A stretch of 64,000 bases of DNA from Octopus vulgaris (Eukaryota), in assembly GCA_951406725.2 (NCBI GenBank), contig OX597822.1, forward strand, positions 114,576,001 through 114,640,000, given 5' to 3'. Position 1 is the stretch's first letter; the number at the start of each line of letters is the position of its first letter. Below, piece by piece: positions 17,203-50,360 of the stretch. The notes below the pieces were generated by a model. It had not been told where the DNA came from, ran no database searches, and saw nothing but the letters and a program-made list of their open reading frames with translations. Made by a program: the position numbers and the translations under genes.

Positions 17203-17387
17203 ATGAAGAATCTGGTTCTGTTCTTATTTGTTTTTGTTGTTGGTCTTTGGCTGACAGAAGGACAGCAGACGACTGATGGGCCAGTGACTCTAAGTCCCAC
17301 ACTGAGTGAAAAATTGTCGGTTTCTAACGAAACGCTTGATTCTGGAAACTCAACGGCACAGGCAGGAAGTCTTCATTTCAGACCACC
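17203..17387 (+). CDS. Exon 1: signal peptide and Ser/Thr-rich spacer
   Basis: GCCATG start, hydrophobic [23 protein letters not shown]-glycosylation sequons NET and NST, donor GTAAGT at 17388 (phase 2). A possible upstream acceptor at 17120-17121 suggests a non-coding first exon. Confidence 0.8.
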
Positions 17388-18131
17388 GTAAGTTACGCTT
17401 TCATTCCACCCGATTTCTCATCGCCACTTTCCTCTTCTGTACTTCTTGTGTTTTTTACTCTTTTATTAAATAATTGGACCGTGTTAAATAATTGGAACGA
17501 TTGCAACAGAAGGGACTCAGGGTACCTGAATTACCCCAGCATTTGTAGTTTTTATGTCGATCTGTTTGTACTTAGCCCAGTGCGTCTCTGTTAGTAGGTA
17601 GAAATGAAAAACTATGGCCTGTATATCAGAACTGTATTGTTTCAAACAGTTCTCCATAGATCTCTTTTTCTTTAATATATGATGAGATATTCTTTTCTAC
17701 TCGAGGCACAAGGCCCGAAATTTTGGGGGACCAGTCGATGAGATCGACCCTAGTACGCAGCTCGTACTTAATTTATCGACCGAGAAAGGATGAAAGGCAA
17801 AGTCGACCTCTGCGGAATTTGAACTCAGATCGTAAAGACGAAATACCGCTAGGCATCTCGCCCGGCGTGCTAACGTTTCTGCCAGCTCGCCGCTTTAATA
17901 CGATGAGATACTGACATATGACTGGGCAGATGATCTCTTCAAAAGTGCTTGACTTATTTTCCTGTCCCTTGGAACAATATCGGGTCCGTTGTGTTTACTC
18001 CGGGTTTCTGATTCTACTGGGATGTTCCACCAACTTTCTGGATACGTTCTGGTTCTGATGCGCCAATCTTCAACAAGCCAGATTCCTGTAACGGAGCTAC
18101 GAAACTTTATGGGATCAAATCAAACTTTTTA

Positions 18132-18229
<98 letters not shown>

Positions 18230-18255
18230 GAAGAAGGAAGAAGAAGAAGAAGAAG

Positions 18256-18286
<31 letters not shown>

Positions 18287-21200: not shown

Positions 21201-21442
21201 TGAGCACTGCATACAATAATTTCATTATTATATGTCTGGCGCGTTTTTCTCGGTATGATATATAATCGGTGTGTGTGTGTGATGTTTGTGTGGTTATATA
21301 TATGATTTGTTAGATTTCATGATTGGTATCTATTGCTATGTAGCTCAAAATGTTCAATATGTTTGGCTTTTGCTGGTGTTGAGATAAACGGACACCCACC
21401 CGCTCACTCACACACACTCATATAAATTAATACATATCTATA

Positions 21443-21477
<35 letters not shown>

Positions 21478-23191: not shown

Positions 23192-23265
<74 letters not shown>

Positions 23266-23614
23266 ATCTTTTTCGGATATTTTGGGATTATTTTGTTGGT
23301 TGAGACGGTTCTTTTTACACTCATTTAGGTATTTTTTCCCTCTTTTAATTTGCATTACAAATAAAACGAACCAAGGATCTTCATTTTTCTTCTCCATTTT
23401 CTTTTATTCTATTATACACACACACATATATATATATATATTTAGATATACATGTATATATGTGTGTATGTATATATATATATATATAATGCACACACAT
23501 ACATATATATATATATATATTTAGATATACATGTATATATGTATGTATATATATATATATATACATGCACACACATACATATATATATATATATTATAGA
23601 TATACATGTATATA

Positions 23615-23661
<47 letters not shown>

Positions 23662-25484: not shown

Positions 25485-25544
<60 letters not shown>

Positions 25545-27648
25545 GTTTATATATTTGTTGTGCAAGATTTTTTATGTGAAGTCCTGTGTTGAAACAGATA
25601 TTGTTATATTTTGGAATGGTCATTTTGCCAGTTTAGCCAATAAAGAAAACAAAGGATCACTGATGCGGTCACAGGGGTGTGACGAAAGAACTCTGGTCGA
25701 AATAAGATTAAGATTAATGTAAAAAATAAATAACACTGAAGCAAAGTAACATCAAATATATAGTGCATGTGTTTTTATTGCTTAAACAGGCAAAATGACC
25801 ATTCCGAAGTATAACAAATATATATATATATATACAAATACATATATTCCTTTCTTTTTTCAGGATATGTAGATGGACATGTCCTCGACGCGTGACCTAC
25901 AGAAGAGGAACCTGGTGCTGGTTCTCCGGATGGTGTAGAAAATTCACGTAAATACGAGGCCACACTTTCCGGTTTTTATATCTTTCTTTACAGAGTAAAC
26001 TTTCGATATAACGGCATCCACAATAACGCAAACCACAAGCTAACGGCATTTTCCTCCTCTTCTCCTATTTTGAAATTTCTATGTATACATTCTTATTTAT
26101 TTCTATCGTTGCCGATATATGGTCACCTGTTAAATATAAATGCTAATGATGTGGTATTTCATATAGCAACCTTTTGTTTCTTACTCAATCTACACTCTTC
26201 ACTTGTGGCGCTGTTACTCTCTCTCTCTTGTCGGCTTCTAACGAGCAAAGTTCCTGTAACTAGCAATATTTTCCGAATTCATAATTTGTAGCACTCAATG
26301 AAATCCCATTCACTAAGCAACAGCAGCCATAATCCGAAAAGAAGAACAAGTCAACATCATCGGTAATCACTGAGACGCAGGTTTTATGTCGGAGTTATCC
26401 TAGTTACCTGAGTTACCTTCTCCTAGAAGGATGCCCATACAAAAGCTAGGAGTCCTTCACTCCCAATGGTTTAACTGCACGATCGGGTATTCAGTCCGAT
26501 TATTTCTATGTCCCCGCGCATGATACAGCCTTAAGACATTTATTGGATGGCCGTTGACTCTCGAGAGTTCCTCCGCCCTTTGACGGGTTTTGTTTTTCAT
26601 CCCGCAGGGTGTCCAATAAACACCCTCCTCACCAAGCATATATATATATACATATATAAATTCAGGGTGAATACTTGATAAATGTAAGCACCTGTATATG
26701 CCAGCTAGTGGCATAGGTGATAGGATATATGTATCAAAAGAAAAACAGGACGCAAAGGATTTTGCGGTACATATGATTCGGGCTTTATTGAACAACTTAT
26801 TCTTATATCAATGCATAATTGATATAACGGATCTACCCAGTATTCATTCTATATCGAGTGAAAAAACGGTATGGACGATTTGTTTTGGAATCTAATAATA
26901 CCATGTTCGCCTATGAGGATTTACTTTCCCAATGAAGCTCGGTTTTTTCTCAAACCTTTTATAATGTGATATGGTGTAGCAATTGTACGCGGCTGAAGAA
27001 GGCTTTTGATCTATCTGTTATATCAATTATGCATTGATATAAGAATAAGTTGTTCAATAAAGCCCAAAACATATGTACCGCAAAATCCTTTGCATCCTGT
27101 TTTTCTTTTGATACATATATCCTATCACCTATGCCACTAGCTGGCATATACAGGTGCTTACATTTATCAAGTATTCACCCTCAATTTATATATATATATA
27201 TATATGCTTGGTGAGGAGGGTGTTTATTGGACACCTGCGGGATGAAAAACAAAACCCGTCAAAGGGCGGAGGAACTCTTGAGAGTCAACAGCCATCCAAT
27301 AAATGTCTTAAGGCTGTATCATGCGCGGGGACATAGAAATAATCGGACTGAAAACCCGATCGCGCGGTTAAACCATTGGGAGTGAAGGACTCCTAGCCTT
27401 TGTTAGGGCATCCTTCTAGAAGGTAACTCAGGTAACTGGGATAATTCCGACATAAAACCTGCGGCCCAGTGGTTACCGATGATGTTGACTTGTTCTTCTT
27501 TTCAGATTATGGCTGCTGTTGCTTAGTGAGTGTGATTGACTCAGTGCACAGCCTTTCTTCACTTAAAAATCTTCTTGCACAGGCATTGCACGATGACAAC
27601 ATTGATTAAGCTTCGAGCAATGGCCATACTCGATAACGAGGGGACAGC

Positions 27649-27694
<46 letters not shown>

Positions 27695-27943
27695 TTTTGT
27701 GTATATATATTTTTTTACAACTATAAATAAGGGTGTCTGAGAGACACTACCATGCTGAAATAGCAGTCAAATCCCTGACTCTAGAAACCACCAGGAATTT
27801 GACTGCTATTTCAGCATGGTGGTGTCTCTCAGACACCCTTATTTATAGTTGTAAAACAATTATTACCTTTGTATGGTATCTATTCCCATGCTAACCACTT
27901 GATAATATCGATATTTAAATATCGATATTATCCTTATTTATGA

Positions 27944-28013
<70 letters not shown>

Positions 28014-28323: not shown

Positions 28324-28392
<69 letters not shown>

Positions 28393-30816: not shown

Positions 30817-30864
<48 letters not shown>

Positions 30865-31328: not shown

Positions 31329-31359
<31 letters not shown>

Positions 31360-32097
31360 TATAATAAATATTAGGGAATAAATCCAAACTTACAGGGAAA
31401 AATCAGATTTAGGATTGAATCCAATTTTATAGTAAAATATTATATTATATTAAATTAGAGATAAAACCACTATTAGGCAAATCATACAATAAAAAACTTA
31501 AGCCAATACATAAGATTATTTAATTTATATTATTTAAATATATAACAAAATTATTAAAAATATATAATTAATATAACTCTACGATCGTTTCATGGCTGTT
31601 AATTTCTTTAAATTTTCGAGTTACAGTCATTCATCAGGTGGTTTGAATATTTAACTTGGCGAGTTAAATATTTAAACCACCTGATGAATGATTGTAACTC
31701 GAAAATTTAAAGAAATTAACAGCCATGAAACGATCGTAGTGTTATATTAATTATATTTTTTAATAATTTTGTTATATATTTAAATAATATAAATTAAATA
31801 ATCTTATGTATTGGCTTAAGTTTTTCATTGTATGATTTACCTAATAGTGGTTTTATCTCTAATTTAATATAATATATATATATATGTTCATTCAAAATGT
31901 GACCGCGTGTGTACCGTTGGCGATTTTTTTCCTCTGTCTTCCCTTCTCTGGATCTTTCCTTCTCCTATGTTTCCGACGAAGAGCTCCGCTCGAAACATTA
32001 AATCCTCCTTTCTTTCCTTTCCTGACCGTCCAATAATACTATATTTGTTCCACGTCCTCACGTTGTTGTGTTTTTTTGTGCTATCTTGTTTGGATTA

Positions 32098-32135
<38 letters not shown>

Positions 32136-32811: not shown

Positions 32812-32857
<46 letters not shown>

Positions 32858-33882
32858 ATATGTGTATGTATGTGCGATTGTCTAAAATTATCGTCACTGC
32901 TCTGTTTTCATATTTTCCTTTTCTATCCTTCTCTCTCTTAACAGGGTAGCTTACAGAATAATTCATTCAACTTGTTACAAATGCTGCAGAGGATGGATCG
33001 GCACGCCTGGAAGGTGCAGAGGTAAGAATATGTGTTCGGTCCGCTCCGGGTATTATGTGTAGATAAGGCCTAATATTTTCTTAATATTTTATATTTTATA
33101 TCCAAATATAACGACCAATGGTCTCGTTTCAAATTTCCTTTTTCTTTCGTATCACAATCCTTTGAAGAAAAACATCGCTATTTCTTCCATTTTCTTTTTC
33201 CTGTTTTATATTGTAAAATGTGCAAATGAGCGTCATGTCGTCTCGTCTTCTGTCCACCATATTTGACCAGTTGATGTCCATTTTGATGTATATAATGCCT
33301 TTGCCACAGCAACTGAGCTGAGAAAGGTCTGAGTTCTGTTAAAAGAACATGGTGCGTCTAACTTATTCTACAATAGCCACAAGGCCTGATATTTGGGGAG
33401 CAGGTGGGGGTCAGTCGATTACATTGAGCCTAATACTTGAATGGTGCTCATTTCACCGACTCCGAAACGATGGATTACAACGTCGACATTGGCAGATTTT
33501 GAACTCGGAACGACGAAATTACGCCAAGAATTTTGCCCAGCGTGTTCACGATTCTGCCAACTCATCACCTTAATAATAACAACAACCACAACAACAACGA
33601 GGACGCAGACGAGGACTACAACGATGACGACGTTGATGATGATGAAACATAAGTGTAATATCCATGCAATAAAATTGTTTTAATTTTCCAGACGTAAACG
33701 AGTGCACAGGGAACCCATGCGGGGCACATGGGAGATGCACCAACACACTAGGATCCTACAGATGTGTTTGTCATCCAGGGTTCCATTTTAACGGCAGAAC
33801 ATGCACTGGTAAGTAAAGCAGAATAGACAACATTTACGCGTATAGCTGTAACTGGTTTCAAGTTATAATAATAATAATAATA

Positions 33883-33930
<48 letters not shown>

Positions 33931-35189
33931 ACAACAATAATAATAATAATAATCATTATAATAATAATTGATGTATCAATACCAGCAGATGACAACGTGT
34001 CTCTAAAAGAAATGGGGAAACTTTCAAAATACAAAGAACTGGAAATAGAGGTAACTCGAATGTGGAATCTAAAAACAGAAACAATTCCTATCATAGTAGG
34101 TGTATTAGGCATGATAAAAAAATATTTAGACAAATACATAACAAAAACATCAGGACTTACAAACACATATAACATACAGAAAATTGCACTACTAGGCACT
34201 GCACACATCCTACGCAGAACACTTTCAATACAATAACCATCAGAGCATCACAACAAATCACAGCACATACCCAAGGCACACAGAGCTGCACTCGGTAGTG
34301 AAGAGAAAGCACGCTATAAAAATAAAACTACTGAATAATAGTAATAATAATAATAATAATAAGGACCTACATACAATGGAAGATATGCACACACTATAGA
34401 ATAACACCAGAAAAAAGATGGTATAGGTACACGCCAGAAAAGATCACAGAAATGAGAAAGTAACATTACACAGATAGAGAAATTGAGGCCAATAGGCCGG
34501 ACATAATTGACAGAGATCATGAAGGAAAAAATGCATTCTGATTGATGTATCAATACCAACAGATGACAACGTTTCTCTAAAAGAAATGGAAAAACTTTCA
34601 AAATACAAAGACCTGGAAACAGAGGTATCTCGAAAGTGGAGTCTGAAAGCAGAAACAATTCCTATCATAGTAGGTGCATTAGGCATTATAAAAAAATATT
34701 CAGACAAATACATAAGAAAAACACCAGGACTTACAAATATATATAGCATAAAGAAAATAGCACTCGTAGGTACCGCACACATTCTACGTAAAGCACTTTC
34801 AATACAGTAAAAGTAAGAGCATCACAACAAACCACAGCACATACCCAAGGTACACAGAGCTGTAATTGGTAGTGCAGTAAAAGCACGTGATATCAATAAG
34901 ATTATGATGATGATGATGATTAATGATGATGATTGATGATGATGTTAATGTTGATGGTGATGATGATAATACATAAGTGTTATATTCATGCAATAAAATT
35001 GTTTTACTTTCCAGACAGAAACGAGTGCACAGGGAACCCATGCGGGGCACATGGGAGATGCACCAACAATCACGGATCCTACACATGTGTCTGTAATCCA
35101 GGATTCGAGTTCAGCGGAACAACATGCGTTGGTAAGTAAAGCAGAACAGACATCACGCGTATAGGTGTAACTGGATTCAAGTTATATTA

Positions 35190-35244
<55 letters not shown>

Positions 35245-38200
35245 GGCTTTTGATAGCCTACCACATAGCTGGATTAGGAAATGCCTGGAAATGTATAAGA
35301 TAGCACCTACTCTGTGAAACTTTTTCACTGTAAGTATGAGATCATGGAGAACCACACTAACTCTGAACAGTGACAATGAATCCCTAAATGCTGGTGATGT
35401 AAAAATTTTGTGTGGCATTTTCCAGGGTGACTCACTGTCACCACTCCTCTTTTGTTTAGCCTTAATACCTCTCTCAAAACTGCTCAATGACGCGCAGTAC
35501 GGGTATAAAATGTTGGATAAAAATATAAATCATCTCATTTACATGGATGATTTAAAGCTCTTTTCAAAAAATGACCAACAACTCAAGGGCTTACTAGCGA
35601 TAGTCAAACGATTCAGTGACGACATCAGAATGCAATTTGGCCTCGATAAATGTGCAAAAGCTACCTTTATCAAAGGAAAAATGACAGAAACATTTAACGT
35701 TAACCTTGACCAGCAGAATGTCATAAAAGAACTAGACCCAGCGGAGAGCTACAAGTACCTAGGGGTAATTGAAGGGAACGGAATAAGGCATTCAGAGATG
35801 AAGGAAAGGATCAGGAGAGAATGCTATCGAAGAGTGAGAGCAATACTGAAGACAGAGCTGAATGCAAGAAACAGGATCGAAGTGATCAATGCATTAGCCA
35901 TACCAGTTGTGACTTACAGTTTCAATATCGTTAACTGGTCAATTACTGAAATATGTCAGCTTGACAGAAAAATAAGAAAACTGTTGACAATGCATAGAAT
36001 GCACCACCCTAAGGCAGATACAGAACGACTTAATCTGCCAAGAAAAGAGGGAGGCCGTGGTCTTTTGCAACTGGCAATAACAATGAAGATTTCTACAATT
36101 GGCCTAGACACCTACTTGAAAAAGTCTGAGGACTGGATGTTAAAACTTGTCTCAAAACATGAAAACAAGAAAGCATCATACTCAGTAACAAAACAGGCCG
36201 AGGAATATCTAAGTGAATTCTGAATACAACAAATTTCGGAATTAGAGATAGACATACAAGAAACAAGCACAGAAAAAGCTAAACGCATGAAAACCCGTGC
36301 CAAAACTGCGGCCTTAGATATTCTGAATAATAAATGGCAAGAAAAACCTCTCTATGGCAAATACCCAAAGAGAGCGAATAATGCAGATATTGATAAAGCC
36401 CTGACCCATCAATGGCTAATGGCCTCTGGCTTAAAATCTGAAACAGAAGGGTTTATCATAGCAGCTCAAGATCAATGCCTACCAACAAGAAACTACCAGG
36501 CCAACATATTAAAGAACGGCAGTAGCCCAACATGTCGTTTATGCCGACAACAAAATGAAACCATTGATCATGTTGTCTCCAAGTGCAGTCTTCTTGCGCC
36601 TACAGAGTACCTCAACAGGCATGATAGACCTGCACAATATATTCACTGGGTAATTTGCAGAAGCCTGGACTTGCCCCATGATAAAAAACTGGTGGGAACA
36701 CAAACCACCTCCAGTGCTTGAAAATGACCACATCTCACTCCTCTGGAACTTCACCATTCAAACTGACAAAAAGATAGATGCAAACAGGCCAGACATCATA
36801 TAGAAAGACTTCAGACAAAGAACATGCCTCCTCATTGATATGACTGTCCCAATCGATATAAACGTATCTGTCAAGACCTACCAAAAACTGAGCAAATATA
36901 AAGATCTTGAAATAGAAATCAGCAAAATGTGGAAGCTGAAGACTAAAACAATACCTGTTGTCATAGGGAAAGATAGCGAAAGGGGCTGATTGCTACCTAA
37001 TTCAGATACCAGGAAACCCCGAAATGGCAGAAATTCAAGAGATAGTGCTCATGGGAACTGCTCATATTTTATGGCATGGATATAAATCTTATGTATAATC
37101 ATTATCATCATCATCATCATCAATCATCAATCATCATTTATCATCATCATCAATCATCATTATCATTCATCATCATAAATGAACAATCATCATTATCAAA
37201 ATACTCTCCAAGTAATCTCAAGGTTTAAAACAAACTTTTTTTTTTAAACTATGTATTAGACATTCACTAGAACAACACCAAAAAAAAACCCTAAATATAT
37301 GGAACACTAGGCATAACAACAACGTGAACTTCCAACCTGTTGTCTCTTGAGGTCACTGGGTGAGACTTGGAGCCAACTTGTACAAACATAAAGCAAAAGT
37401 CAAACATAGAATAATAATATTAATAATGATGTCGAAGATGTTGATGATGATGGTGCTGATGATGATGATGATGATTAATGATGATTGTTCATTGATAATG
37501 ATGATTCTTCATTTATGATGATGATTGATAATGATGATTGATGATGATGATTGATGATGATGATTGATGATGATTGATCATTGATGATGATGATGATGAT
37601 ACAAAAGATTTATATCCATGCCATAAAATTGTTTTACTTCCCAGACACAGACGAGTGCAAAGGAGACCCATGCGGAGAAAAGGGGAAATGCACCAACACA
37701 CAAGGATCCTACACATGTGACTGTAATGCAGGGTACGAGTTCCGTGAAACAACATGCGTTGGTAAGTAAAGCAGAACAGACATCACGCGTATAGGTGTAA
37801 CTGGATTCAAGATATATTAATAATAATAATAATAATAATGTCGATGATGTTGGTGATGATGGTGGTGATAATTGTGGTGATGATTATGATGTTGCTAATG
37901 ATTATGATGTTTAATGATGATCATTCATTGATGATGATGATTGATGATGATGATTAATGAGGATTGATGATGATGATGATGCTCATGATTATGATGATCA
38001 TTCATTGATGATGATGATTGATGATGATGATTCATGATGATTGATCATTGATGATGATGATGATGATACAAAAGATTTATATCCATGCCATAAAATTGTT
38101 TTACTTCCCAGACACAGACGAGTGCAAAGGAGACCCATGCGGGGGAAAGGGGAAATGCACCAACACACAAGGATCCTACACATGTGTCTGTAATGCAGGG

Positions 38201-41200
38201 TACGAGTTCCGCGAAACAACATGCGTTGGTAAGTAAAGCAGAACAGACATCACGCGTATAGGTGTAACTGGATTCAAGTTATATTAGTAATAATAATAAT
38301 AATAATAATAATGTCGATGATGTTGATGATGATGGTGGTGATAATGTTGGTGATGATTATGATGTTGCTAATGATTATGATGTTTAATGATGATCATTCA
38401 TTGATGATGATGATTGATGATGATGATTAATGATGATTGATGATGATGATTAATGATGATTGATGATGAGGATGATGCTCATGATTATGATGATTATTCA
38501 TTGATGATGATGATTGATGATGATGATTGATGATGATGATTGATGATGATTGATGATGATGATTGATGATGATGATTGATGATGATGATTGATGATGATG
38601 ATGATACAAAAGATTTATATCCATGGAATAAATTTGTTTTGCTTTCCAGACACAGACGAGTGCAAAGGAGACCCATGCGGGGGAAAGGGAAATGCACCAA
38701 CACACAAGGATCCTACACATGTGACTGTAATGCAGGGTACGAGTTCCGCGAAACAACATGCGTTGGTAAGTAAAGCAGAACAGACATCACGCGTATAGGT
38801 GTAACTGGATTCAAGTTATATTAGTAATAATAATAATAATAATAATGTCGATGATGTTGATGATGATGGTGGTGATAATGTTGGTGATGATTATGATGTT
38901 GCTAATGATTATGATGTTTAATGATGATCATTCATTGATGATGATGATTGATGATGATGATTAATGATGATTGATGATGATGATTAATGATGATTAATGA
39001 TGAGGATGATGCTCATGATTATGATGATTATTCATTGATGATGATGATTGATGATGATGATTGATGATGATGATTGATGATGATTGATGATGATGATTGA
39101 TGATGATGATTGATGATGATGATTGATGATGATGATGATACAAAAGATTTATATCCATGGAATAAATTTGTTTTGCTTTCCAGACACAGACGAGTGCAAA
39201 GGAGACCCATGCGGGGAAAGGAAATGCACCAACACACAAGGATCCTACACATGTGACTGTAATCCAGGGTACGAGTTCCGCGAAACAACATGCGTTGGTA
39301 AGTAAAGCAGAACAGACATCACGCGTATAGGTGTAACTGGTTTCAAGTTATATTAGTAATAATAATAATAATAATAATGTCGATGATGTTGGTGATGATG
39401 GTGGTGATAATGGTGGTGATGATTATGATGTTGCTAATGATTATGATGTTTAATGATGATCATTCATTGATGATGATGATTGATGATGTTGATTAATGAT
39501 GATTGATGATGAGGATGATGCTCATGATTATGATGATTATTCATTGATGATGATGATTGATGATGATGGATGATGATGATTGATGATGATGATTAATGAT
39601 GATTGATGATGATTGATCATTGATGATGATGATGATGATACAAAAGATTTATATCCATGCCATAAAATTGTTTTGCTTTCCAGACACAGACGAGTGCAAA
39701 GGAGACCCATGCGGGGGAAAGGGGAAATGCACCAACACACAAGGATCCTACACATGTGACTGTAATGCAGGGTACGAGTTCCGCGAAACAACATGCGTTG
39801 GTAAGTAAAACAGAACAGACATCACGCGTATAGGTGTAACTGGATTCAAGTTATATTAGTAATAATAATAATAATAATAATGTCGATGATGTTGGTGATG
39901 ATAGTGGTGATGATTATGATGTTGCTAATGATTATGATGTTTAATGATGATCATTCATTGATGATGATGATTGATGATGATGATTAATGATGATTGATGA
40001 TGAGGATGATGCTCATGATTATGATGATTATTCATTGATGATGATGATTGATGATGATGATTGATGATGATTGATCATTGATGATGATGATGATACAAAA
40101 GATTTATATCCATGCCATAAAATTGTTTTGCTTTCCAGACACAGACGAGTGCAAAGGAGACCCATGCGGGGGAAAGGGGAAATGCACCAACACACAAGGA
40201 TCCTACACATGTGACTGTAATGCAGGGTACGAGTTCCGCGAAACAACATGCGTTGGTAAGTAAAGCAGAACAGACATCACGCGTATAGGTGTAACTGGAT
40301 TCAAGTTATATTAGTAATAATAATAATAATAATAATGTCGATGATGTTGGTGATGATAGTGGTGATGATTATGATGTTGCTAATGATTAATGATGATCAT
40401 TCATTGATGATGATGATGATGATTAATGATGATTGATGATGATGATGATGCTCATGATTATGATGATCATTCATTGATGATGATGATTAATGATGATGAT
40501 TGATGATGATTGATCATTGATGATGATGATGATGATACAAAAGATTTATATCCATGCCATAAAATTGTTTTGCTTTCCAGACACAGACGAGTGCAAAGGA
40601 GACCCATGCGGGGAAACGGGAAATGCACCAACACACAAGGATCCTACACATGTGACTGTAATCCAGGGTACGAGTTCCGCGAAACAACATGCGTTGGTAA
40701 GTAAAGCAGAACAGACATCACGCGTATAGGTGTAACTGGATTCAAGTTATATTAGTAATAATAATAATAATAATAATGTCGGTGATGTTGGTGATGATGG
40801 TGGTGATAATGGTGGTGATGATTATGATGTTGCTAATGATTATGATGATTAATGATGATCATTCATTGATGATGATGATTGATGATGATGATTAATGATG
40901 ATTGATGATGATGATGGTGCTCATGATTATGATGATTATTCATTGATGATGATGATTGATGATGATGGATGATGATGATTGATGATGATTGATGATGATG
41001 ATTGATGATGATTGATCATTGATGATGATGATGATGATACAAAAGATTTATATCCATGCCATAAAATTGTTTTGCTTTCCAGACACAGACGAGTGCAAAG
41101 GAGACCCATGCGGGGGAAAGGGGAAATGCACCAACACACAAGGATCCTACACATGTGACTGTAATGCAGGGTACGAGTTCCGCGAAACAACATGCGTTGG

Positions 41201-43432
41201 TAAGTAAAACAGAACAGACATCACGCGTATAGGTGTAACTGGATTCAAGTTATATTAGTAATAATAATAATAATAATAATGTCGATGATGTTGGTTATGA
41301 TGGTGGTGATAATGGTGGTGATGATTATGATGTTGCTAATGATTATGATGATTAATGATGATCATTCATTGATGATGATGATTGATGATGATGATTAATG
41401 ATGATTGATGATGATGATGGTGCTCATGATTATGATGATCATTCATTGATGATGATGATTGATGATGATGATTGATGATGATTGATCATTGATGATGATG
41501 ATGATGATTAATGATTATTGATGATGATGATGATTAATGATGATTGATGATGATGATGGTGCTCATGATTATGATGATTATTCATTGATGATGATGATTG
41601 ATGATGATGGATGATGATGATTGATGATGATTGATGATGATGACTGATGATGATTGATCATTGATGATGATGATGATGATACATAAGTTTTATATCCATG
41701 CCATAAAATTGTTTTGCTTTCCAGACACAGACGAGTGCAAAGGAGACCCATGCGGGGGAAAGGGGAAATGCACCAACACACAAGGATCCTACACATGTGA
41801 CTGTAATGCAGGGTACGAGTTCCGCGAAACAACATGCGTTGGTAAGTAAAGCAGAACAGACATCACGCGTATAGGTGTAACTGGATTCAAGTTATATTAG
41901 TAATAATAATAATAATAATAATGTCGATGATGTTGGTGATGATGGTGGTGATAATGGTGGTGATGATTATGATGTTGCTAATGATTATGATGTTTAATGA
42001 TGATCATTCATTGATGATGATGATTGATGATGTTGATTAATGATGATTGATGATGAGGATGATGCTCATGATTATGATGATTATTCATTGATGATGATGA
42101 TTGATGATGATGGATGATGATGATTGATGATGATTGATGATGATGATTGATGATGATGATTGATGATGATTGATCATTGATGATGATGATGATGATACAA
42201 AAGATTTATATCCATGCCATAAAATTGTTTTGCTTTCCAGACACAGACGAGTGCAAAGGAGACCCATGCGGGGGAAAGGGGAAATGCACCAACACACAAG
42301 GATCCTACACATGTGACTGTAATCCAGGGTACGAGTTCCGCGAAACAACATGCGTTGGTAAGTAAAGCAGAACAGACATCACGCGTATAGGTGTAACTGG
42401 ATTCAAGTTATATTAGTAATAATAATAATAATAATAATGTCGATGATGTTGGTGATGATGGTGGTGATAATGGTGGTGATGATTATGATGTTGCTAATGA
42501 TTATGATGTTTAATGATGATCATTCATTGATGATGATGATTGATGATGTTGATTAATGATGATTGATGATGAGGATGATGCTCATGATTATGATGATTAT
42601 TCATTGATGATGATGATTGATGATGATGGATGATGATGATTGATGATGATTGATGATGATGATTGATGATGATGATTGATGATGATTGATCATTGATGAT
42701 GATGATGATGATACAAAAGATTTATATCCATGCCATAAAATTGTTTTGCTTTCCAGACACAGACGAGTGCAAAGGAGACCCATGCGGGGGAAAGGGGAAA
42801 TGCACCAACACACAAGGATCCTACACATGTGACTGTAATCCAGGGTACGAGTTCCGCGAAACAACATGCGTTGGTAAGTAAAGCAGAACAGACATCACGC
42901 GTATAGGTGTAACTGGATTCAAGTTATATTAGTAATAATAATAATAATAATAATGTCGGTGATGTTGGTGATGATGGTGGTGATAATGGTGGTGATGATT
43001 ATGATGTTGCTAATGATTATGATGATTAATGATGATCATTCATTGATGATGATGATTGATGATGATGATTAATGATGATTGATGATGATGATGGTGCTCA
43101 TGATTATGATGATCATTCATTGATGATGATGATTGATGATGATGATTGATGATGATTGATCATTGATGATGATGATGATGATTAATGATTATTGATGATG
43201 ATGATGATAATGATGATACATAAGTTTTATATCCATGCCATAAAATTGTTTTGCTTTCCAGACACAGACGAGTGCAAAGGAGACCCATGCGGGGGAAAGG
43301 GGAAATGCACCAACACACAAGGATCCTACACATGTGACTGTAATGCAGGGTACGAGTTCCGCGAAACAACATGCGTTGGTAAGTAAAGCAGAACAGACAT
43401 CACGCGTATAGGTGTAACTGGATTCAAGTTAT

Positions 43433-43496
<64 letters not shown>

Positions 43497-44976
43497 TCGA
43501 TGATGTTGGTGATGATGGCGGTGATAATGGTGGTGATGATTATGATGTTGCTAATGATTATGATGTTTAATGATGATCATTCATTGATGATGATGATTGA
43601 TGATGTTGATTAATGATGATTGATGATTATGATGCTCATGATTATGATGATCATTCATTGATGATGATGATTGATGATGATGATTGATGATGATGGATGA
43701 TGATGATTGATGATGATTGATGATGATGATTGATGATGATGATTGATGATGATTGATCATTGATGATGATGATGATGATACAAAAGATTTATATCCATGC
43801 CATAAAATTGTTTTGCTTTCCAGACACAGACGAGTGCAAAGGAGACCCATGCGGGGGAAAGGGGAAATGCACCAACACACAAGGATCCTACACATGTGTC
43901 TGTAATGCAGGGTACGAGTTCCGCGAAACAACATGCGTTGGTAAGTAAAGCAGAACAGACATCACGCGTATAGGTGTAACTGGATTCAAGATATATTAAT
44001 AATAATAATAATAATAATGTCGATGATGTTGGTGATGATGGTGGTGATAATTGTGGTGATGATTATGATGTTGCTAATGATTATGATGATTAATGATGAT
44101 CATTAATTGATGATGATGATTGATGATGTTGATTAATGATGATTGATGATGAGGATGATGCTCATGATTATGATGATTATTCATTGATGATGATGATTGA
44201 TGATGATGATTGATGATGATGGATGATGATGATTGATGATGATTGATGATGATGATTGATGATGATGATTGATGATGATTGATCATTGATGATGATGAAA
44301 GATTTATATCCATGCCATAAAATTGTTTTGCTTTCCAGACACAGACGAGTGCAAAGGAGACCCATGCGGGGGAAAGGGGAAATGCACCAACACACAAGGA
44401 TCCTACACATGTGTCTGTAATGCAGGGTACGAGTTCCGCGAAACAACATGCGTTGGTAAGTAAAGCAGAACAGACATCACGCGTATAGGTGTAACTGGAT
44501 TCAAGATATATTAATAATAATAATAATAATAATAATGTCGATGATGTTGGTGATGATGGTGGTGATAATGGTGGTGATGATTATGATGTTGCTAATGATT
44601 ATGATGATTAATGATGATCATTCATTGATGATGATGATTGATGATGATGATTAATGATGATTGATGATTATGATGCTCATGATTATGATGATCATTCATT
44701 GATGATGATGATTGATGATGATGATTGATGATGATTGATCATTGATGATGATGATGATGATACAAAAGATTTATATCCATGCCATAAAATTGTTTTGCTT
44801 TCCAGACACAGACGAGTGCAAAGGAAACCCATGCGGGGGAAAGGGGAAATGCACCAACACACAAGGATCCTACACATGTGTCTGTAATGCAGGGTACGAG
44901 TTCCGCGAAACAACATGCGTTGGTAAGTAAAGCAGAACAGACATCATGCATATAGGTGTAACTGGATTCAAGTTAT

Positions 44977-45031
<55 letters not shown>

Positions 45032-46211
45032 TTAATAATAATAATAATAATATTAATGCCAAATATCTCGAAATAACGAATGACTGGATGCTAAAGCTCG
45101 TGGAAAATCACGAGAGACGAAAGAAGCTTCGTTCTATCATAAAGGAATGCAAAAAATTTGCTATTGATCTCGTGCAGGATACCCAAACTGAACAACCGAG
45201 GGAAGTACGGCAACTATTGTTGCAAAGAAGGTGAAAATAATGGCAATGAAAAAAGCACACGAGCAATTGGCTGATAGGTGGGAGGAGAAACCTCTGCACG
45301 GCAAATATGTGGCCCGCAGCAAAGAAGCTGATGTTGACCAGAAGCAAACCCATCAGTGGCTACGGAGCTCAGGGTTAAAAGCAGAGAGTGAAAGTTTCAT
45401 CCTGGCTGCTCAAGATCAAAGCCTATTAACCCGGAACTACCAGGCCAATGTAATGAAAAATGGAGCAGACCCAAAATGCCGATTCTGCAACGACATGATT
45501 GAAACAGTGGACCACCTAATCTCTGGATGTAAAGTCTTAGCACCAGTGGAGTATAAATTAAGACAAGACAGAGTTGGCCAATATCTACACTGGCTAATAA
45601 GTCGGCATTACAATATCAAAACTGCCAACAAGTGGTATAATCACCTCCCTGAGTCTGTAACTGAAGGAGAAAAAGTAACCATTCTGTGGGACTTTCCAGT
45701 ACATACAGACCGAAACATCAAGGCCAATAAACCAGATATTGTCGTGAAAGACCAAAACAATAAAGTTTGCTTATTGATCGACATGAGCATCCCCTGTGAT
45801 CATAATATCTCAGCGAAAGAGTTTGACAAGCTCAGAAAATATAAAGACCTACTCATTGAAATTGAGAAAATGTGGCATCTCAAGGCGGTTACAATACCAG
45901 TGATCGTAGGAGCACTAGGAATGATCAAGAAGGGAACCGAAAATTATATGCGAATGATCCCTGGCTTACCATCCCTGCAAGAAGTGCAAAAGATTGTCTT
46001 AGCTGGTACATCACACGTATTGAGAAGAGCATTGTCGATGTGAGAACTGTTGCTGCTCATGTATTTTAATTTAACTTAAAAAAAAAAAAATGAACGAACT
46101 ATTGAGTTTGGTTTAATGGCCTACCAATGTATACTATGAGTTTCTTTGCCCTAGGAGTCGGGAAGACACTCGGCAAGAAATGGAAGCAAATTTGAAAGAA
46201 GAAAAAAATAA

Positions 46212-46247
<36 letters not shown>

Positions 46248-46596
46248 TCAATGATGTTGATGATAATGGTGGTGATGATTATGATGTTGCTAATGATTAT
46301 GATGATTAATGATGATTCTTCATTGATGATGATGATTAATGATGATTGATGATTAATGATGATGATGATGATAATGATGATACATAAGATTTATATCCAT
46401 GCCATAAAATTGTTTTACTTTCCAGACACAGACGAGTGCACAGGAGACCCATGCGGGGGAAAGGGGAAATGCACCAACACACAAGGATCCTACACATGTG
46501 ACTGTAATGCAGGGTACGAGTTCCGCGAATCAACATGCGTTGGTAAGTAAAGCAGAACAGACATCACGCGTATAGGTGTAACTGGATTCAAGTTAT

Positions 46597-46631
<35 letters not shown>

Positions 46632-48565
46632 GTCTTTTGATAGCCTACCACATAGCTGGATTAGGAAATGCCTGGAAATGTATAAGATAGCACCTACTCT
46701 GCAAAACTTTTTCACTGTAAGTATGAGATCATGGAGAACCACACTAACTCTGAACAGTGACAATGAATCCCTAAATGCTGGTGATGTAAAAATTTTGTGT
46801 GGCATTTTCCAGGGTGACTCACTGTCACCACTCCTCTTTTGTTTAGCCTTAATACCTCTCTCAAAACTGCTCAATGACGCGCAGTACGGGTATAAAATGT
46901 TGGATAAAAATATAAATCATCCCATTTACATGGATGATTTAAAGCTCTTTTCAAAAAATGACCAACAACTCAAGGGCTTACTAGCGATAGTCAAACAATT
47001 CAGTGACGACATCAGAATGCAATTCGGCCTCGATAAATGTGCAAAAGCTACCTTTATCAAAGGAAAAATGACAGAAACATTTGACGTTAACCTTGACCAG
47101 CAGAATGTCATAAAAGAACTAGACCCAGCGGAGAGCTACAAGTACCTAGGGGTAATTGAAGGGAACGGAATAAGGCATTCAGAGATGAAGGAAAGGATCA
47201 GGAGAGAATGTTATCGAAGAGTGAGAGCAATACTGAAGACAGAGCTGAATGCAAGAAACAGGATCGAAGTGAACAATGCATTAGCCATACCAGTTGTGAC
47301 TTACAGTTTCAATATCGTTAACTGGTCAATTACTGAAATATGTCAGCTTGACAGAAAAATAAGAAAACTGTTGACAATGCATAGAATGCACCACCCTAAG
47401 GCAGATACAGAATGACTTTATCTGCCAAGAAAAGAGGGAGGCCATGGTCTTTTGCAACTGGCAATAACAATGAAGATTGCTACAATTGGCCTAGACACCT
47501 ACCTGAAAAAGTGTGAGGACTGGATGTTAAAACTTGTCTCAAAACATGAAAACAAGAAAGCATCATACTCAGTAACAAAACAGGCAAAGGAATATCTAAG
47601 TGAATTCTGAATACAACAAATTTCGGAATTAGAGATAGACATACAAGAAACAAGCACAGAAAAAGCTAAACGCATGAAAACCCGTGCCAAAACTGTGGCC
47701 TTAGATATTCTGAATAATAAATGGCAAGAAAAACCTCTCTATGGCAAATACCCAAAGAGAGCAAATAATGCAGATATTGATAAAGCCCTGACCCATCAAT
47801 GGCTAATGGCCTCTGGCTTAAAATCTGAAACAGAAGGGTTTATCATAGCAGCTCAAGATCAATGCCTACCAACAAGAAACTACCAGGCCAACATATTAAA
47901 GAACGGCAGTAGCCCAACATGTCGTGTATGCCGACAAAATGAAACCATTGATCATGTTGTCTCCAAATGCAGTCTTCTAGCACTGAAAACTAAAACAATA
48001 CCTGTTGTCATAGGTGCCCTGGGAATGATAGCGAAAGGGGCTGATTGCTACCTAACTCAGATACCAGGAAACCCCAAAATGGCAGAAATTCAAAAGATAG
48101 TGCTCATGGGAACTGCTCATATCCTACGCAAAATACTCTCTATGTAATCCCAAGGTTTGAAACAAACTTTTTTTTTAAACTATGTATTAGACATTCACTA
48201 GAACAACACCAAAAAAAACCCAAATATATGGCACACTGGGCATAACAACAACGTGAACTTCCAACCTGTTGTCTCCTGAAGTCTCTGGGTGAGACTTGGA
48301 GCCAACTTGTACAGACATAAAGCAAAAGTCAAACATAGAATAATAATAATAATAATAATAATAATCCTCTCTACTATAGGCTCAAGGACTGAAATTTTGG
48401 GGGTGGGGACTAGTCGATTACATTGACCCCACTGTTTCAGTGGTACTTAATTTATCAACCTCGAAAGGATGAAAGGCAAAGTCGACCACGGAACGTAACG
48501 ACAGACGAAATTACAGCTACGCATTTCGCCCGGCGTGCTAACGTTTCTGCCAGCTCGCCGCCTTC

Positions 48566-48628
<63 letters not shown>

Positions 48629-50014
48629 TAATAATAATATTAATAATAATAATAATAATGATAATAATAATAATGATAATAATAATGATAATAATAATAA
48701 TAATAATAATAATGATAATAATAATAATAATAATAATGATAATAATAATAATAATAATAATAATGACAACTTCTGTCACTTTCCAGGGAGAAAAACTAGA
48801 AATAGTTGATAGTTTCCGTTACCTAGGTGACCAAGTCAGCAGCGGGGGCGGGTGTGCTGAAAGTGTAACTGCTAGAGTAAGAATAGCTTGGGCAAAGTTC
48901 AGAGAGCTCTTACCTCTGCTGGTGACAAAAGGCCTCTCGCACAGAGTGAAAGGCAGACTGTATGATGCGTGTGTACGAACAGCCATGCTACATGGCAGTG
49001 AAACATGGGCCGTGACTGCTGAGGATATGCGTAAGCTCGCTAGAAATGAAGCCAGTATGCTCCGATGGATGTGTAATGCCAGTACTCACACTCGGCAGAG
49101 TGTAAGTACCTTGAGAGAAAAGCTGGACCTAAGAAGCATCAGTTGTGGTGTGCAAGAGAGACGTTTGCGCTGGTATGGTCATGTGGCGAGAATGGATGAA
49201 GATAGTTGTGTGAAAAAGTGCCACACCCTAGCGGTTGAGGGAACCTGTGGAAGAGGCAGACCCAGGAAAACCTGGGACGAGGTGGTGAAGCACGACCTTC
49301 GAACTTTAGGTCTCACCGAGGAAATGACTAGAGACCGAGACCTCTGGAAGTGTGCTGTGCGCGAGAAGACCCGGCAGGACAAGTGAGTCCACAACCCGTG
49401 GCCTTCTACATGGGATGGAGCCAGCCTACGTATGCATACCTTCCCTTCTTGGGACACAAAACTCTACTTGTGAAGACGTGTTGAGGCAAGTGAGGATCAG
49501 AATCGAAATCGATCAATGGAAATTGCGGATGTGCTACCAGTGCCGGTGGCATGTCGAAACTCTGCTTGTGAAGACCCATTGAGGCAAGTGAGGATCAGAA
49601 TCGAAATCGATCAATGGAAATCGATCAATGGAAATTGCAGATGTGTTACCAGTGCCGGTGGCATGTAAGAGAACCTTCCGTTTCGCGACCGTTGCCAGCA
49701 CCGCCCCGTTTCGTGTTCGTTGCCAGCCTCGCCTGGCCCTCGTGCCGGTGGCACATAAAAAACACCATCCGTTCGTGGCCGTTTGCCAGCTCTGGCTGGC
49801 ACCAGTGCGGGTGGCACGTAAAAAGCACCCACTACACTCACGGAGTGGTTGGCGTTAGGAAGGGCATCCAGCCGTAGAAACACTGCCAGATTTGACTGGG
49901 CCTGATGAAGCCTTCTGGCTTCACAGACCCCAGCAGAACCGTCCAACCCATGCTAGCATGGAAAACGGACGCTAAATGATGATGATGATGATGATGATGA
50001 TAATAATAATAATG

Positions 50015-50084
<70 letters not shown>

Positions 50085-50128
50085 TAATAATAATGATAAT
50101 AATAATAATAATGATAATAATAATAATG

Positions 50129-50187
<59 letters not shown>

Positions 50188-50360
50188 GTATCTGTTTTGT
50201 ATACAAGCAATTGTTGCTTTCTTTTCCAGATATAGACGAGTGTAAATATGTAGCGTGTGCTAAAAACAAACACAGGATATGCATCAACACTATAGGATCT
50301 TACGAATGTCGCTGTAAGCAAGGCTTCCATTTTCAAGGGAAGTCATGTGTTGAAAAGTAG
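17203..50360 (+). CDS. Spliced gene (22 coding exons, ~860 aa): secreted protein, signal peptide + EMI-like domain + 19 calcium-binding EGF repeats, no TM segment seen
   Basis: All exons have AG/GT boundaries and compatible phases: exon1 ends phase 2, exon2 is 2-2, exon3 is 2-1, EGF exons are 1-1. The joined translation gives [20 protein letters not shown]..., ICRWTC...CYKCCRGW...C, then D-x-[DN]-E-C...C-x-N-x-x-G-S-Y-x-C-x-C repeats. Two array exons are 116 nt as assembled. Confidence 0.85.
17690..17895 (-). mobile_element. Family 3 short element
   Basis: Matches an arm of 9035-9296. Confidence 0.75.
18286..19500 (-). mobile_element. Decayed L1/Tx1-like ORF2 N-terminal region (AP endonuclease)
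   Basis: [24 protein letters not shown] motifs across frameshifts. Confidence 0.6.
19725..21230 (+). mobile_element. CR1-group LINE 3' end followed by tandem copies of its own tail
   Basis: [41 protein letters not shown]...WN.LP; tail units start at 20001, 20334 and 20669. Confidence 0.88.
21470..21848 (+). mobile_element. SINE family 1
   Basis: Near copy of 6162-6600. Confidence 0.88.
21910..22200 (+). mobile_element. SINE family 2
   Basis: Near copy of 2674-2959. Confidence 0.88.
22458..23163 (-). mobile_element. SINE family 1 split by an AT-rich insertion (about 22700-22975) in its internal microsatellite
   Basis: 3' half at 22458-22695, 5' half at 23000-23163; the insert matches the repeat tail at 31226-31335. 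Confidence 0.8.
24631..24723 (+). ncRNA. Hammerhead-like motif in AT-rich repeat (about 24390-24995), reverse-complement relative of about 190-575
   Basis: CTGAAGA ...TGTAACCA/TGGTTACA stem... GAAA C GATC GTA. Confidence 0.55.
25020..25480 (+). mobile_element. CR1/L2-group LINE 3' fragment
   Basis: [32 protein letters not shown]. Confidence 0.85.
25864..25947 (+). CDS. Exon 2: first half of EMI-like domain ([29 protein letters not shown])
   Basis: Polypyrimidine tract + CAG acceptor, 84 nt, phase 2-2, open in the frame set by exon 1, donor GTAAAT. Not in the ORF track. Confidence 0.8.
26300..26638 (-). mobile_element. RTE 5' UTR-type repeat
   Basis: Reverse complement of 27205-27540; similar to 700-940. 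Confidence 0.8.
26657..27188. mobile_element. MITE-like element with ~175-bp inverted arms in (TA)n
   Basis: Arms 26657-26832 and 27013-27188; a solo related arm at about 14745-14850. Confidence 0.85.
27205..27606 (+). mobile_element. RTE 5' UTR-type repeat
   Basis: Matches 700-1000, which leads into the RTE endonuclease ORF. Confidence 0.8.
27713..27856. repeat. Hairpin with 65-bp arms and a 14-nt loop
   Basis: 27713-27777 versus 27792-27856, two mismatches. Confidence 0.9.
28553..28662 (-). ncRNA. Type-I hammerhead ribozyme motif (mirror copy)
   Basis: Exact reverse complement of 29234-29343. Confidence 0.8.
29234..29343 (+). ncRNA. Type-I hammerhead ribozyme motif with canonical core and long stem II
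   Basis: TCT CTGAAGA GGC...GCC GAAA C-AGCT-G TC AGA; predicted cleavage after C29340. Confidence 0.8.
29719..30212. mobile_element. Mariner-derived fold-back element built from the transposase 3' end
   Basis: [43 protein letters not shown] on +, mirrored on -; arms about 29750-29958 and 30009-30212. Confidence 0.8.
30590..30812 (-). mobile_element. SINE family 1, 3' half
   Basis: Similar to 6400-6600. Confidence 0.75.
31577..31640 (-). ncRNA. Hammerhead motif (mirror copy)
   Basis: CAC CTGATGA ATGACTGT...ACAGCCAT GAAA C GATC GTA GAG. Confidence 0.7.
31678..31741 (+). ncRNA. Type-I hammerhead ribozyme motif with canonical core
   Basis: CAC CTGATGA ATG...CAT GAAA C-GATC-G TA GTG; predicted cleavage after A31738. 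Confidence 0.78.
31898..32099 (+). mobile_element. Third copy of the ~200-bp hammerhead-like repeat
   Basis: Reverse complement of 12210-12414. Confidence 0.8.
32137..32473. mobile_element. SINE family 1 head (-) and RTE 3' tail ending in (GAT)n (+)
   Basis: 32311-32473 matches 49838-50000. Confidence 0.75.
32945..33021 (+). CDS. Exon 3: second half of EMI-like domain ([25 protein letters not shown])
   Basis: Long pyrimidine tract + AACAG acceptor, 77 nt, phase 2-1, CCxGW motif typical of the EMI domain end, donor GTAAGA. Confidence 0.85.
33692..33808 (+). CDS. EGF exon 1 ([39 protein letters not shown])
   Basis: TTTCCAG acceptor, 117 nt, GTAAGT donor, cbEGF consensus. Confidence 0.9.
33967..34333 (+). 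mobile_element. R4/Dong 3' fragment in the intron after EGF exon 1
   Basis: [45 protein letters not shown]; (TAA)n flanks. Confidence 0.85.
34362..34900 (+). mobile_element. Second R4/Dong 3' fragment in the same intron
   Basis: Same family with a different 5' truncation; starts at (TAA)n. Confidence 0.85.
35015..35131 (+). CDS. EGF exon 2 ([39 protein letters not shown])
   Basis: TTTCCAG / GTAAGT, 117 nt, cbEGF consensus. Confidence 0.9.
35240..37410 (+). mobile_element. 5'-truncated R4/Dong element (copy A1) after EGF exon 2
   Basis: [51 protein letters not shown]; (TAA)n flanks. Confidence 0.92.
37645..37761 (+). CDS. EGF exon 3 (array type [10 protein letters not shown])
   Basis: CAG / GTAAGT, 117 nt. 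Confidence 0.88.
38112..38228 (+). CDS. EGF exon 4
   Basis: CAG / GTAAGT, 117 nt. Confidence 0.88.
38650..38765 (+). CDS. EGF exon 5 (116 nt; one G missing in a G run)
   Basis: Splice sites intact; GGGGGAAAGGGAAA instead of GGGGGAAAGGGGAAA. Confidence 0.65.
39184..39297 (+). CDS. EGF exon 6 (114 nt; 3 G missing, frame restored)
   Basis: Splice sites intact; reads CGERKC instead of CGGKGKC. Confidence 0.7.
39684..39800 (+). CDS. EGF exon 7
   Basis: CAG / GTAAGT, 117 nt. Confidence 0.88.
40139..40255 (+). CDS. EGF exon 8
   Basis: CAG / GTAAGT, 117 nt. Confidence 0.88.
40581..40696 (+). CDS. EGF exon 9 (116 nt; frameshift in G runs)
   Basis: Splice sites intact; GGGGAAACGGGAAA. Confidence 0.65.
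41083..41199 (+). CDS. EGF exon 10
   Basis: CAG / GTAAGT, 117 nt. Confidence 0.88.
41725..41841 (+). CDS. EGF exon 11
   Basis: CAG / GTAAGT, 117 nt. Confidence 0.88.
42241..42357 (+). CDS. EGF exon 12
   Basis: CAG / GTAAGT, 117 nt. Confidence 0.88.
42757..42873 (+). CDS. EGF exon 13
   Basis: CAG / GTAAGT, 117 nt; its 516-bp unit looks identical to that of exon 12. Confidence 0.85.
43262..43378 (+). CDS. EGF exon 14
   Basis: CAG / GTAAGT, 117 nt. Confidence 0.88.
43824..43940 (+). CDS. EGF exon 15
   Basis: CAG / GTAAGT, 117 nt. Confidence 0.88.
44339..44455 (+). CDS. EGF exon 16
   Basis: CAG / GTAAGT, 117 nt; not listed as a + ORF in the track. Confidence 0.88.
44806..44922 (+). CDS. EGF exon 17 (ECKGNPC variant)
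   Basis: CAG / GTAAGT, 117 nt. Confidence 0.88.
45057..46210 (+). mobile_element. R4/Dong 3' part after EGF exon 17 (related to 3157-5295)
   Basis: Open CCHC + RLE region ([30 protein letters not shown]); (TAA)n flanks. Confidence 0.92.
46426..46542 (+). CDS. EGF exon 18 (ECTGDPC...RESTCV variant)
   Basis: CAG / GTAAGT, 117 nt. Confidence 0.88.
46627..48339 (+). mobile_element. R4/Dong copy A2 after EGF exon 18, with an internal deletion of the RLE region
   Basis: Near-identical to 35240-37410 with the same 5' and 3' ends. Confidence 0.92.
48770..50000 (+). mobile_element. RTE-clade LINE 3' part with (GAT)n tail
   Basis: VDSFRYLG...[39 protein letters not shown]; ~100-bp tandem duplication in the 3' UTR. 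Confidence 0.92.
50230..50360 (+). CDS. Terminal EGF exon 19 ([43 protein letters not shown])
   Basis: CTTTTCCAG acceptor, phase 1, cbEGF consensus, no GT donor after the last Cys, in-frame TAG at 50358-50360. Confidence 0.85.

Follow-up and report, generated by a model that had tools for sequence, protein, structure and literature searches.

A 64,000-nt stretch of the Octopus vulgaris genome (NCBI GenBank assembly GCA_951406725.2, contig OX597822.1, positions 114,576,001 to 114,640,000 of the forward strand; hereafter the window) contains a 22-exon gene for a predicted secreted protein, in which a signal peptide and a cationic, cysteine-rich head are followed by a long tandem array of calcium-binding epidermal growth factor-like (cbEGF) modules, each encoded by a single exon. 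The reading proposed here, to which we assign a probability of about 0.45, is that the head would sit at the tip of a cbEGF stalk, predicted to be stiffened by calcium, and would attach there to surfaces of negative charge; unequal crossing-over would probably change the length of the stalk. The genomic mechanism, in which misaligned units gain or lose whole exons in frame and conversion homogenises them, is judged very probable from the make-up of the array. Signal-EMI-EGF proteins and homogenised exon arrays are both already known; the new elements here are the Octopus family, the one-exon expansions that recur in it, and an exchange dated by a long interspersed nuclear element (LINE).

The gene model extends on the plus strand from the ATG at 17203 to the stop codon at 50358-50360, with AG and GT at the exon ends, GT-AG borders in all 21 introns, and intron phases 2, 2 and 1 leading into the first EGF exon. 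The 22 exons given in a preliminary description of this DNA (17203-17387, 25864-25947, 32945-33021 and 19 EGF exons from 33692) were all verified at their positions. The features of the gene are:

16946..16955, plus strand: TATA-like box about 255 nt upstream of the ATG, putative in function
17203..17387, plus strand: coding exon 1, with a predicted signal peptide (residues 1-20), a Ser/Thr-rich spacer and two N-glycosylation sequons; ends in phase 2
25864..25947, plus strand: exon 2, first half of the cationic eight-cysteine EMI-like head; phase 2-2, net charge +7
32945..33021, plus strand: exon 3, second half of the head, with a CC-x-GW motif; phase 2-1, net charge +5
33692..33808, plus strand: EGF exon 1, cbEGF, 77-79% identical to the array units
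35015..35131, plus strand: EGF exon 2, cbEGF, mosaic
37645..44922, plus strand: core tandem array, EGF exons 3-17, with a period of 442-642 nt
38650..38765, plus strand: EGF exon 5, 116 nt, frameshifted as assembled
39184..39297, plus strand: EGF exon 6, 114 nt, in frame and one residue shorter
40581..40696, plus strand: EGF exon 9, 116 nt, frameshifted as assembled
46426..46542, plus strand: EGF exon 18, array type, 95-98% identical to exons 3-17
50230..50360, plus strand: terminal EGF exon 19, cbEGF, net charge +4, no membrane anchor
50778..50953, plus strand: two putative AATAAA polyadenylation candidates, at 50778 and 50948

Exon 1 holds the sole hydrophobic 19-residue window among three exons checked, and its signal peptide was called from hydrophobicity and the conserved N-termini of the relatives described below, not from a predictor. 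As had been expected, Pfam EGF_CA (PF07645) matched all four EGF exons tested, at 30.6-39.7 bits (cut-off 27), and all in-frame modules carry the cbEGF consensus of six cysteines, D-x-D/N-E, N and Y. No in-frame module of the array contains a stop or has lost a cysteine, and exons 1-3 are intact. EGF exon 19 has AA at the donor position instead of GT and runs into the stop codon, which falls two residues past the last EGF module; this exon encodes no hydrophobic segment. A chance origin is excluded, because the model comprises 16 near-identical exon-sized modules with intact splice sites and is colinear with relatives annotated in three Octopus species. No second gene of the family was found in the 64-kb window by tblastn. 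Read-through gives Gly-Lys-stop at each of the 18 donors that follow EGF exons 1-18, so that a retained intron would terminate the protein cleanly behind whichever in-frame module precedes it.

The array had been described as 16 near-identical EGF exons separated, for the most part, by introns equally alike, and this description holds. EGF exons 3-18 are 95-100% identical, with nine distinct sequences among the 16, and the 14 introns from EGF3 to EGF17 are 95-100% identical over aligned columns, with lengths of 325-525 nt. In each array intron a 60-nt 5' part is conserved, as is the acceptor, and between them lie an AAT tract and then a degenerate GAT tract; an AAT tract is present in every EGF intron. 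Only introns 11 and 12 are 100% identical without gaps, and 13 of the 14 introns are distinct. The possibility that the array is an over-expanded (looped) assembly was rejected, because looping should have produced runs of identical units, whereas there is one identical intron pair among the 14, and deep collapsed unit contigs are present in two DNA-type sequencing runs.

These contigs come from a comparison of four public runs with one intact unit (40095-40315), which involved 155 contigs (30, 70, 41 and 14). Runs X1 and X2 are of DNA type, X5 covers introns and was treated as DNA-like, X6 covers exons only, and none is recorded as RNA. Depths were read from the 32 of the 155 pieces listed, and since depth is not copy number they indicate ‘many copies’ only. 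X1 holds one 137-nt unit contig at a depth of 192, identical to the window, and X2 one 201-nt unit contig at a depth of 713, with two differences; most of the divergent contigs listed have depths of 3-49 and 14-57, respectively, three of those in X1 lying at 19-29. At position 40172 the window unit has G, while A makes up 448 of 526 depth in X1 and is also found in the deep X2 contig, whose second difference lies at 40214 (by subtraction of depths). Each lineage seems to have its own consensus letters, as concerted evolution would predict. Unit depth ratios differ between X1 and X2, as ratios of collapsed contigs for which single-copy depth is not established, and no joint was listed within the single unit 40095-40315 in the four-run comparison.

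Sequence comparisons within the array point to exchange between units, with 14 of the 66 pairs among 12 informative sites showing all four combinations across the 16 units in the four-gamete test. EGF2 differs from EGF1 at two positions in its first 54 nt and at 16 in its last 63 nt. LINE sequence in the EGF introns also bears on the history of the array:

35241..37420, plus strand: 5'-truncated LINE in the intron that follows EGF2, within its AAT tract, with RVT_1 and zf-RVT matches
45058..46210, plus strand: 3' fragment of a LINE, within the AAT tract that follows EGF17 and flanked by AAT tracts; its zf-RVT match (E 2e-4) is below the curated cut-off
46628..48350, plus strand: twin of the LINE after EGF2, located after EGF18, with the same insertion site and the same 5' truncation point

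The twins differ at 22 of 1354 aligned bases in their 5' part and at 11 of 221 in their 3' part, whereas 18 of 117 bases separate EGF2 from EGF18 (p 1e-10 against the LINE 5' part). Two independent LINE insertions were rejected, as both copies share insertion site and truncation point. Because the twins are nearly alike while the adjoining exons have diverged, EGF2 being mosaic and EGF18 of array type, exon and LINE were duplicated together, the exons later being overwritten by their neighbours or changing fast. The mosaic units and the co-duplicated LINE support recent amplification by unequal exchange, in line with the preliminary description of a recently amplified array open to unequal crossover. 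In the mechanism proposed, neighbouring units would misalign, probably seeded at the AAT tract in every intron, whole exons would be gained or lost in frame by unequal crossing-over, and conversion would homogenise the units, leading to a lineage-specific consensus; crossing-over between AAT tracts could yield both LINE-bearing and LINE-free units. Counting these LINEs, retroelement pieces adjoin or interrupt the AAT tracts in four EGF introns (33967-34899, 35241-37420, 45058-46210, 46628-48350 and 48790-49383), and these tracts look like insertion hot spots.

The gene as assembled is not complete and phase-consistent, as had first been claimed. EGF exons 5 and 9 are one base short in a purine (G/A) run of their first half, the same run in which exon 6 differs, and at 116 nt each they bring the full join to a premature stop. 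Likewise, the description as 19 cbEGF modules with internal exons all symmetric in phase 1-1 fails for this sequence as assembled, since 16 of the 18 internal exons are in frame, phase 1-1, and exons 5 and 9 break the frame. The 16 in-frame exons, with the mosaicism and the co-duplicated LINE, agree with the proposal of a length-variable ‘accordion’ gene in being symmetric units with signs of unequal exchange. When exons 5 and 9 are left out, the join stays open for 781 aa and comprises 17 EGF modules. Among the 155 contigs of the four runs no indel is listed inside the exon of the unit compared, the four indel rows being all intronic, with the proviso that contigs lose rare variants and that the four runs are not known to derive from the assembled individual. 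Because of this lack of exonic indels, assembly errors are somewhat favoured over real lesions as the origin of the two 116-nt exons, a leaning only, as contigs drop rare variants; if real, the two exons would need skipping.

Splicing between EGF exons can be seen in run X6, which covers exon 40138-40259 only, with an intron depth of zero, and whose contigs have loose ends in which, ahead of the acceptor, an EGF exon finishes and, past the donor, a different one begins. EGF exons are thus joined to each other at the phase-1 sites predicted, in related modules rather than in this array. The X6 contigs are most likely transcripts of paralogs, because none of the 14 is 99% alike to the window unit, all have C at 40181 and A at 40237, and the share of exon-1 words present in X6 is only 0.17, versus 0.65 in DNA under the same organism label. 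No X5 contig reached 99% identity either, by which absence of the unit is not proven. The sequence downstream of one X6 contig differs from anything in the window. Divergent EGF unit types (88-95%), the only types in X6, are deep in X2 too, with a summed depth of 946 for C at 40181, hinting at further amplified EGF arrays in paralogs.

The four-run comparison yielded 30 exon variants, 27 of which were scored, the adjacent rows 40193-40195 being omitted as one multi-base change. Twenty-five of the 27 are residue-changing (expected share 0.78, p 0.04) and none falls in a Cys or calcium-consensus codon (p 2e-4), a selection signal that is approximate, since paralogs and species are mixed among the variants and each base was scored singly. 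Between EGF1 and the array, the proportions of nonsynonymous (pN) and synonymous (pS) differences are 0.26 and 0.14 (no significance computed). A conserved scaffold with varying free positions is a lead suggested by these counts.

Relatives of the gene were sought with exon 1, which retrieved two, and with a head profile searched against 1.84 billion representatives, which gave six matches, four of them true and three of the four assigned to Octopus. P0003, a repetitive sturgeon entry flagged as a contaminant, and P0006 (E 4e-4) were rejected as chance matches, and word-index searches with the P0001 head returned itself only, or nothing. Judging by these searches, the gene is one of a small family confined to Octopus:

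XP_014783437 (P0001), O. bimaculoides: 2 EGF modules
UPI00069532CB (P0002): long acidic spacer; partial model that ends after the head, 0 EGF modules
CAI9741403, O. vulgaris: 5 EGF modules
XP_029651374 and its cluster mate XP_036369591, Octopus: 2 and 3 EGF modules

Common to the family are a near-identical signal, a GNST motif, the eight-cysteine head and cbEGF modules; the signals are almost invariant, and the heads are about 50% alike. The relatives are colinear with the modelled exons, and UPI00069532CB continues past its head into sequence matching the intron after exon 3 (tblastn against the window), which together support the gene model and the secreted signal-head-cbEGF layout proposed earlier. 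The region 16970-17200 matches the N-terminal extension of P0002, the exon 2 product aligns with the heads of P0001, P0002, P0004 and P0005, and exon 3 is 66% identical to P0001 by tblastn. The length-variable idea also holds at the level of the family, where relatives carry 2, 3 or 5 modules. XP_029651374 and XP_036369591 are annotated as isoforms, one of which has an additional 39-aa module; this module shares 92% identity with the one next to it, and by this likeness is a separate recent exon duplication. Unlike this gene, none of the database relatives has a 16-unit array. A tree of 20 modules is mostly unresolved and supports only the window array and the P0007 pair as separate groups. 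Modules 2 and 3 of P0007 (duplicated, terminal) keep only four of the six cysteines and still match EGF_CA, and P0001 and P0005 end in short tails resembling the Gly-Lys-stop read-through.

The automatic names of the relatives (ADGRE2, fibulin-1, LTBP2) derive from EGF modules only. Fibulins are defined by a fibulin C-terminal domain, LTBP2 by a TB domain, and ADGRE2 by a GAIN domain with seven transmembrane helices; the relatives gave EGF-type Pfam matches only and the last exon of the window gene lacks a hydrophobic segment, so the features defining these names were not found. The literature searched, with subscription journals and supplementary tables outside that search, yielded no account of the gene or its family, nor of five of the family's accessions. 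The heads of the relatives have net charges of +10 to +17 and their pro-regions of -5 to -82, and a KR or RRSR site lies just before the head in three of the four. The spacer of P0002 is about 240 aa long with acidic repeats (net -82), versus about 40 aa in the window gene, and is a second length-variable site in the family.

The head encoded by exons 2 and 3 has eight cysteines and a net charge of +12. EMI is described as a single N-terminal domain of secreted proteins with three conserved disulfides (PMC11990869), and a single N-terminal head after signal and spacer is found in the window gene and all relatives. Among Atlas structures, eight of ten rows for the XP_014783437 head align to an EMI part, with template modelling (TM) scores of 0.52-0.75 that all fall short of the tool's bar; the feature scores, 0.75-0.81, could arise by chance. 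The predicted head model has a predicted local distance difference test (pLDDT) value of 58.8, and among solved structures the head had no match, either in sequence (best E 0.57) or in the fold of this low-confidence model (best Z 2.8). Pfam EMI (PF07546) did not match the whole head in P0001, P0002, P0004 and P0005 (E up to 1) or P0007 (E up to 0.001). From these models and scans the head is described as EMI-like, not as an EMI member; of the earlier ‘EMI’ label a structural likeness is retained, at scores under the tool's bar, and Pfam membership, unmatched in the head exons and in five relatives, is not.

As for its function, the EMI-like head could, at odds a little short of even, recognise polyanionic targets as a bridging or defence protein, with microbial envelopes, exposed phosphatidylserine and acidic glycans as candidate targets, and an acidic pro-piece might keep the head masked in those relatives that have a basic cleavage-type site. 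The 16 in-frame internal modules have a net charge of -40. Calcium stiffens tandem cbEGFs, and 17-19 modules would span some tens of nanometres. This reading of the protein is suggested, indirectly, by the precursor-like layout of the relatives, by the conserved signal with its variable mature part, and by the example of NimB4, a secreted Nimrod bridging molecule that binds apoptotic cells in a phosphatidylserine-dependent manner (PMC8419693). A more far-reaching version, which we consider unlikely, is that the gene represents an undescribed octopus family of diversified recognition proteins, in which a hypervariable cationic EMI-like head would be set free from a conserved signal and an acidic pro-piece, cbEGF stalks would be resized and homogenised anew in every lineage by microsatellite-seeded unequal crossing-over, and exposed residues would be diversified by selection.

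Several results weigh against a cationic head on a resizable stalk. The full 22-exon join stops at codon 451; the unit of this array is missing at 99% identity among the X6 contigs; and the selection signal has the approximate character noted above. Neither head exon matched Pfam EMI when they were scanned apart, as pieces of 27 and 25 aa, and the structural alignments to EMI fall under the tool's bar. The basic site is absent from this gene and from XP_014783437, and the spacer of this gene has a net charge of only -2.

Known proteins share parts of this layout. EGFL7 and EGFL8 are secreted proteins with an N-terminal EMI-type domain followed by EGF modules (PMC2901201), and they supply the first structural row for the P0001 head (TM 0.55); they differ in having two EGFs plus a coiled coil at the C-terminus, in contrast to the 17-19 cbEGFs of the gene described here, which ends at its last EGF and whose head is unmatched by Pfam EMI. 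Nimrod, Draper and MEGF10 resemble it in that an EGF-like run is preceded by a Cys-rich head bearing a CC-x-G-aromatic motif, and MEGF10, MEGF11 and Draper are among the structural rows for the P0001 head (under the tool's bar). The repeats here are by contrast cbEGF (PF07645), with no membrane anchor; no PF23301 or PF00053 (NIM or laminin-type EGF) was among the Pfam matches of window exons or relatives, and the head profile search gave no sequence-level link to this group. In Eater, the binding tip is cationic and is borne on a stalk made up of homogenised repeats. MEGF6 consists of EMI, cbEGFs and then many laminin-type EGFs, unlike this gene, which has no laminin-type EGF and whose frame ends at EGF19. 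Apolipoprotein(a) kringle IV-2, abalone VERL and oyster bindin are exon arrays under concerted evolution. With these and avian CREMP (PMC12723725) the gene shares near-identical tandem modules in a secreted protein and, as proposed here, length change by whole in-frame units; it differs in having one cbEGF per exon, microsatellite-filled introns, and a LINE dating one duplication.

The best-surviving alternative, less probable by some way than a head that binds negatively charged surfaces, is a structural matrix rod for a secretion or cuticle (egg-string cement, mucus or sucker lining), in which the head would bind acidic stalks or glycans head-to-tail and stalk length would set mesh size. The opposite charges of head (+12) and internal modules (-40) and the contig depths of 600-940 reached by related modules in X6 fit such a rod, as does the occurrence of long arrays of near-identical disulfide modules in structural proteins such as avian CREMP (PMC12723725) and the frequent presence of EMI domains in matrix proteins that form multimers (PMC2901201). 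Most relatives, however, have a variable head and no more than 2-5 modules, assembly domains of the coiled coil, collagen or C1q kind are absent, and the nearly all residue-changing variants at free positions are less fitting for a passive spacer.

Improbable, though worth setting out, is a reproductive recognition protein of the egg coat, spermatophore or seminal fluid, with repeats homogenised per species, as in the recognition proteins abalone VERL and oyster bindin. The consensus letters do differ between the window, X1 and X2, and a conserved signal precedes a fast-changing mature part, but no ZP or lectin module appeared in any Pfam scan of window exons or relatives. Equally improbable is a decaying copy, expanded neutrally beside a satellite block, whose frameshifts would be real and whose transcripts would be destroyed while the paralogs remained functional. 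The two 116-nt exons would suit such a copy, as would the telomere-like array beginning 8 kb downstream and the presence of the array-type unit in X2 DNA and not among X6 contigs of the same organism label; it is at odds with the zero of 155 contigs bearing an exon indel in the four runs (rare variants being dropped and one run being one sample), with GT-AG borders in 21 of 21 introns, and with in-frame modules free of stops and Cys loss behind intact exons 1-3. A salivary or venom-gland component is very improbable, since the precursor-like signal, acidic pro-piece and cationic Cys-rich layout of the relatives and the mention of calcium-binding EGF in a bloodworm toxin paper (PMC5336659) are countered by a lack of similarity to any solved or named toxin in profile, sequence and fold searches.

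The surroundings of the gene are rich in repeats. The telomere-like array (58543-63419) is degenerate, with 811 CCCTAA-type units at 69% match and other sequence on both sides, and is directly followed by a 22-bp satellite (63445-64000) with higher-order periods of 67 and 89 bp. A 121-codon frame on the minus strand (50400-50762) begins 40 nt past the stop and would lie in the 3' untranslated region; it gave no Pfam match at E 0.001, and we take it to resemble the N-terminus of a mariner transposase. Further downstream, a 283-bp direct duplicate (51041-51319 and 52026-52301) is 92% identical. Intron 1 contains tandem duplications of 335 bp and 123 bp of a retroelement-like tail (20000-21231), and intron 2 several long inverted duplicates or palindromes of 380-530 bp, 87-96% identical (26302-27537, 28387-29532, 29749-30212 and 31437-31881).

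Architecture and mechanism each have precedents, which makes the surprise moderate. The locus is nonetheless an unusually readable case of concerted evolution in a domain array, in which a LINE dates one duplication and shows later overwriting of the exon, and in other samples the same unit is found with a consensus particular to them. The locus further brings to light an Octopus gene family to which databases give the wrong names of fibulin, LTBP or adhesion receptor. Should the head be a ligand-binding EMI variant under diversifying selection, the gene would be a concrete candidate for lineage-specific recognition in octopuses, and the far-reaching version, if true, would amount to a germline-variable immune or self-recognition system in a group with none established.

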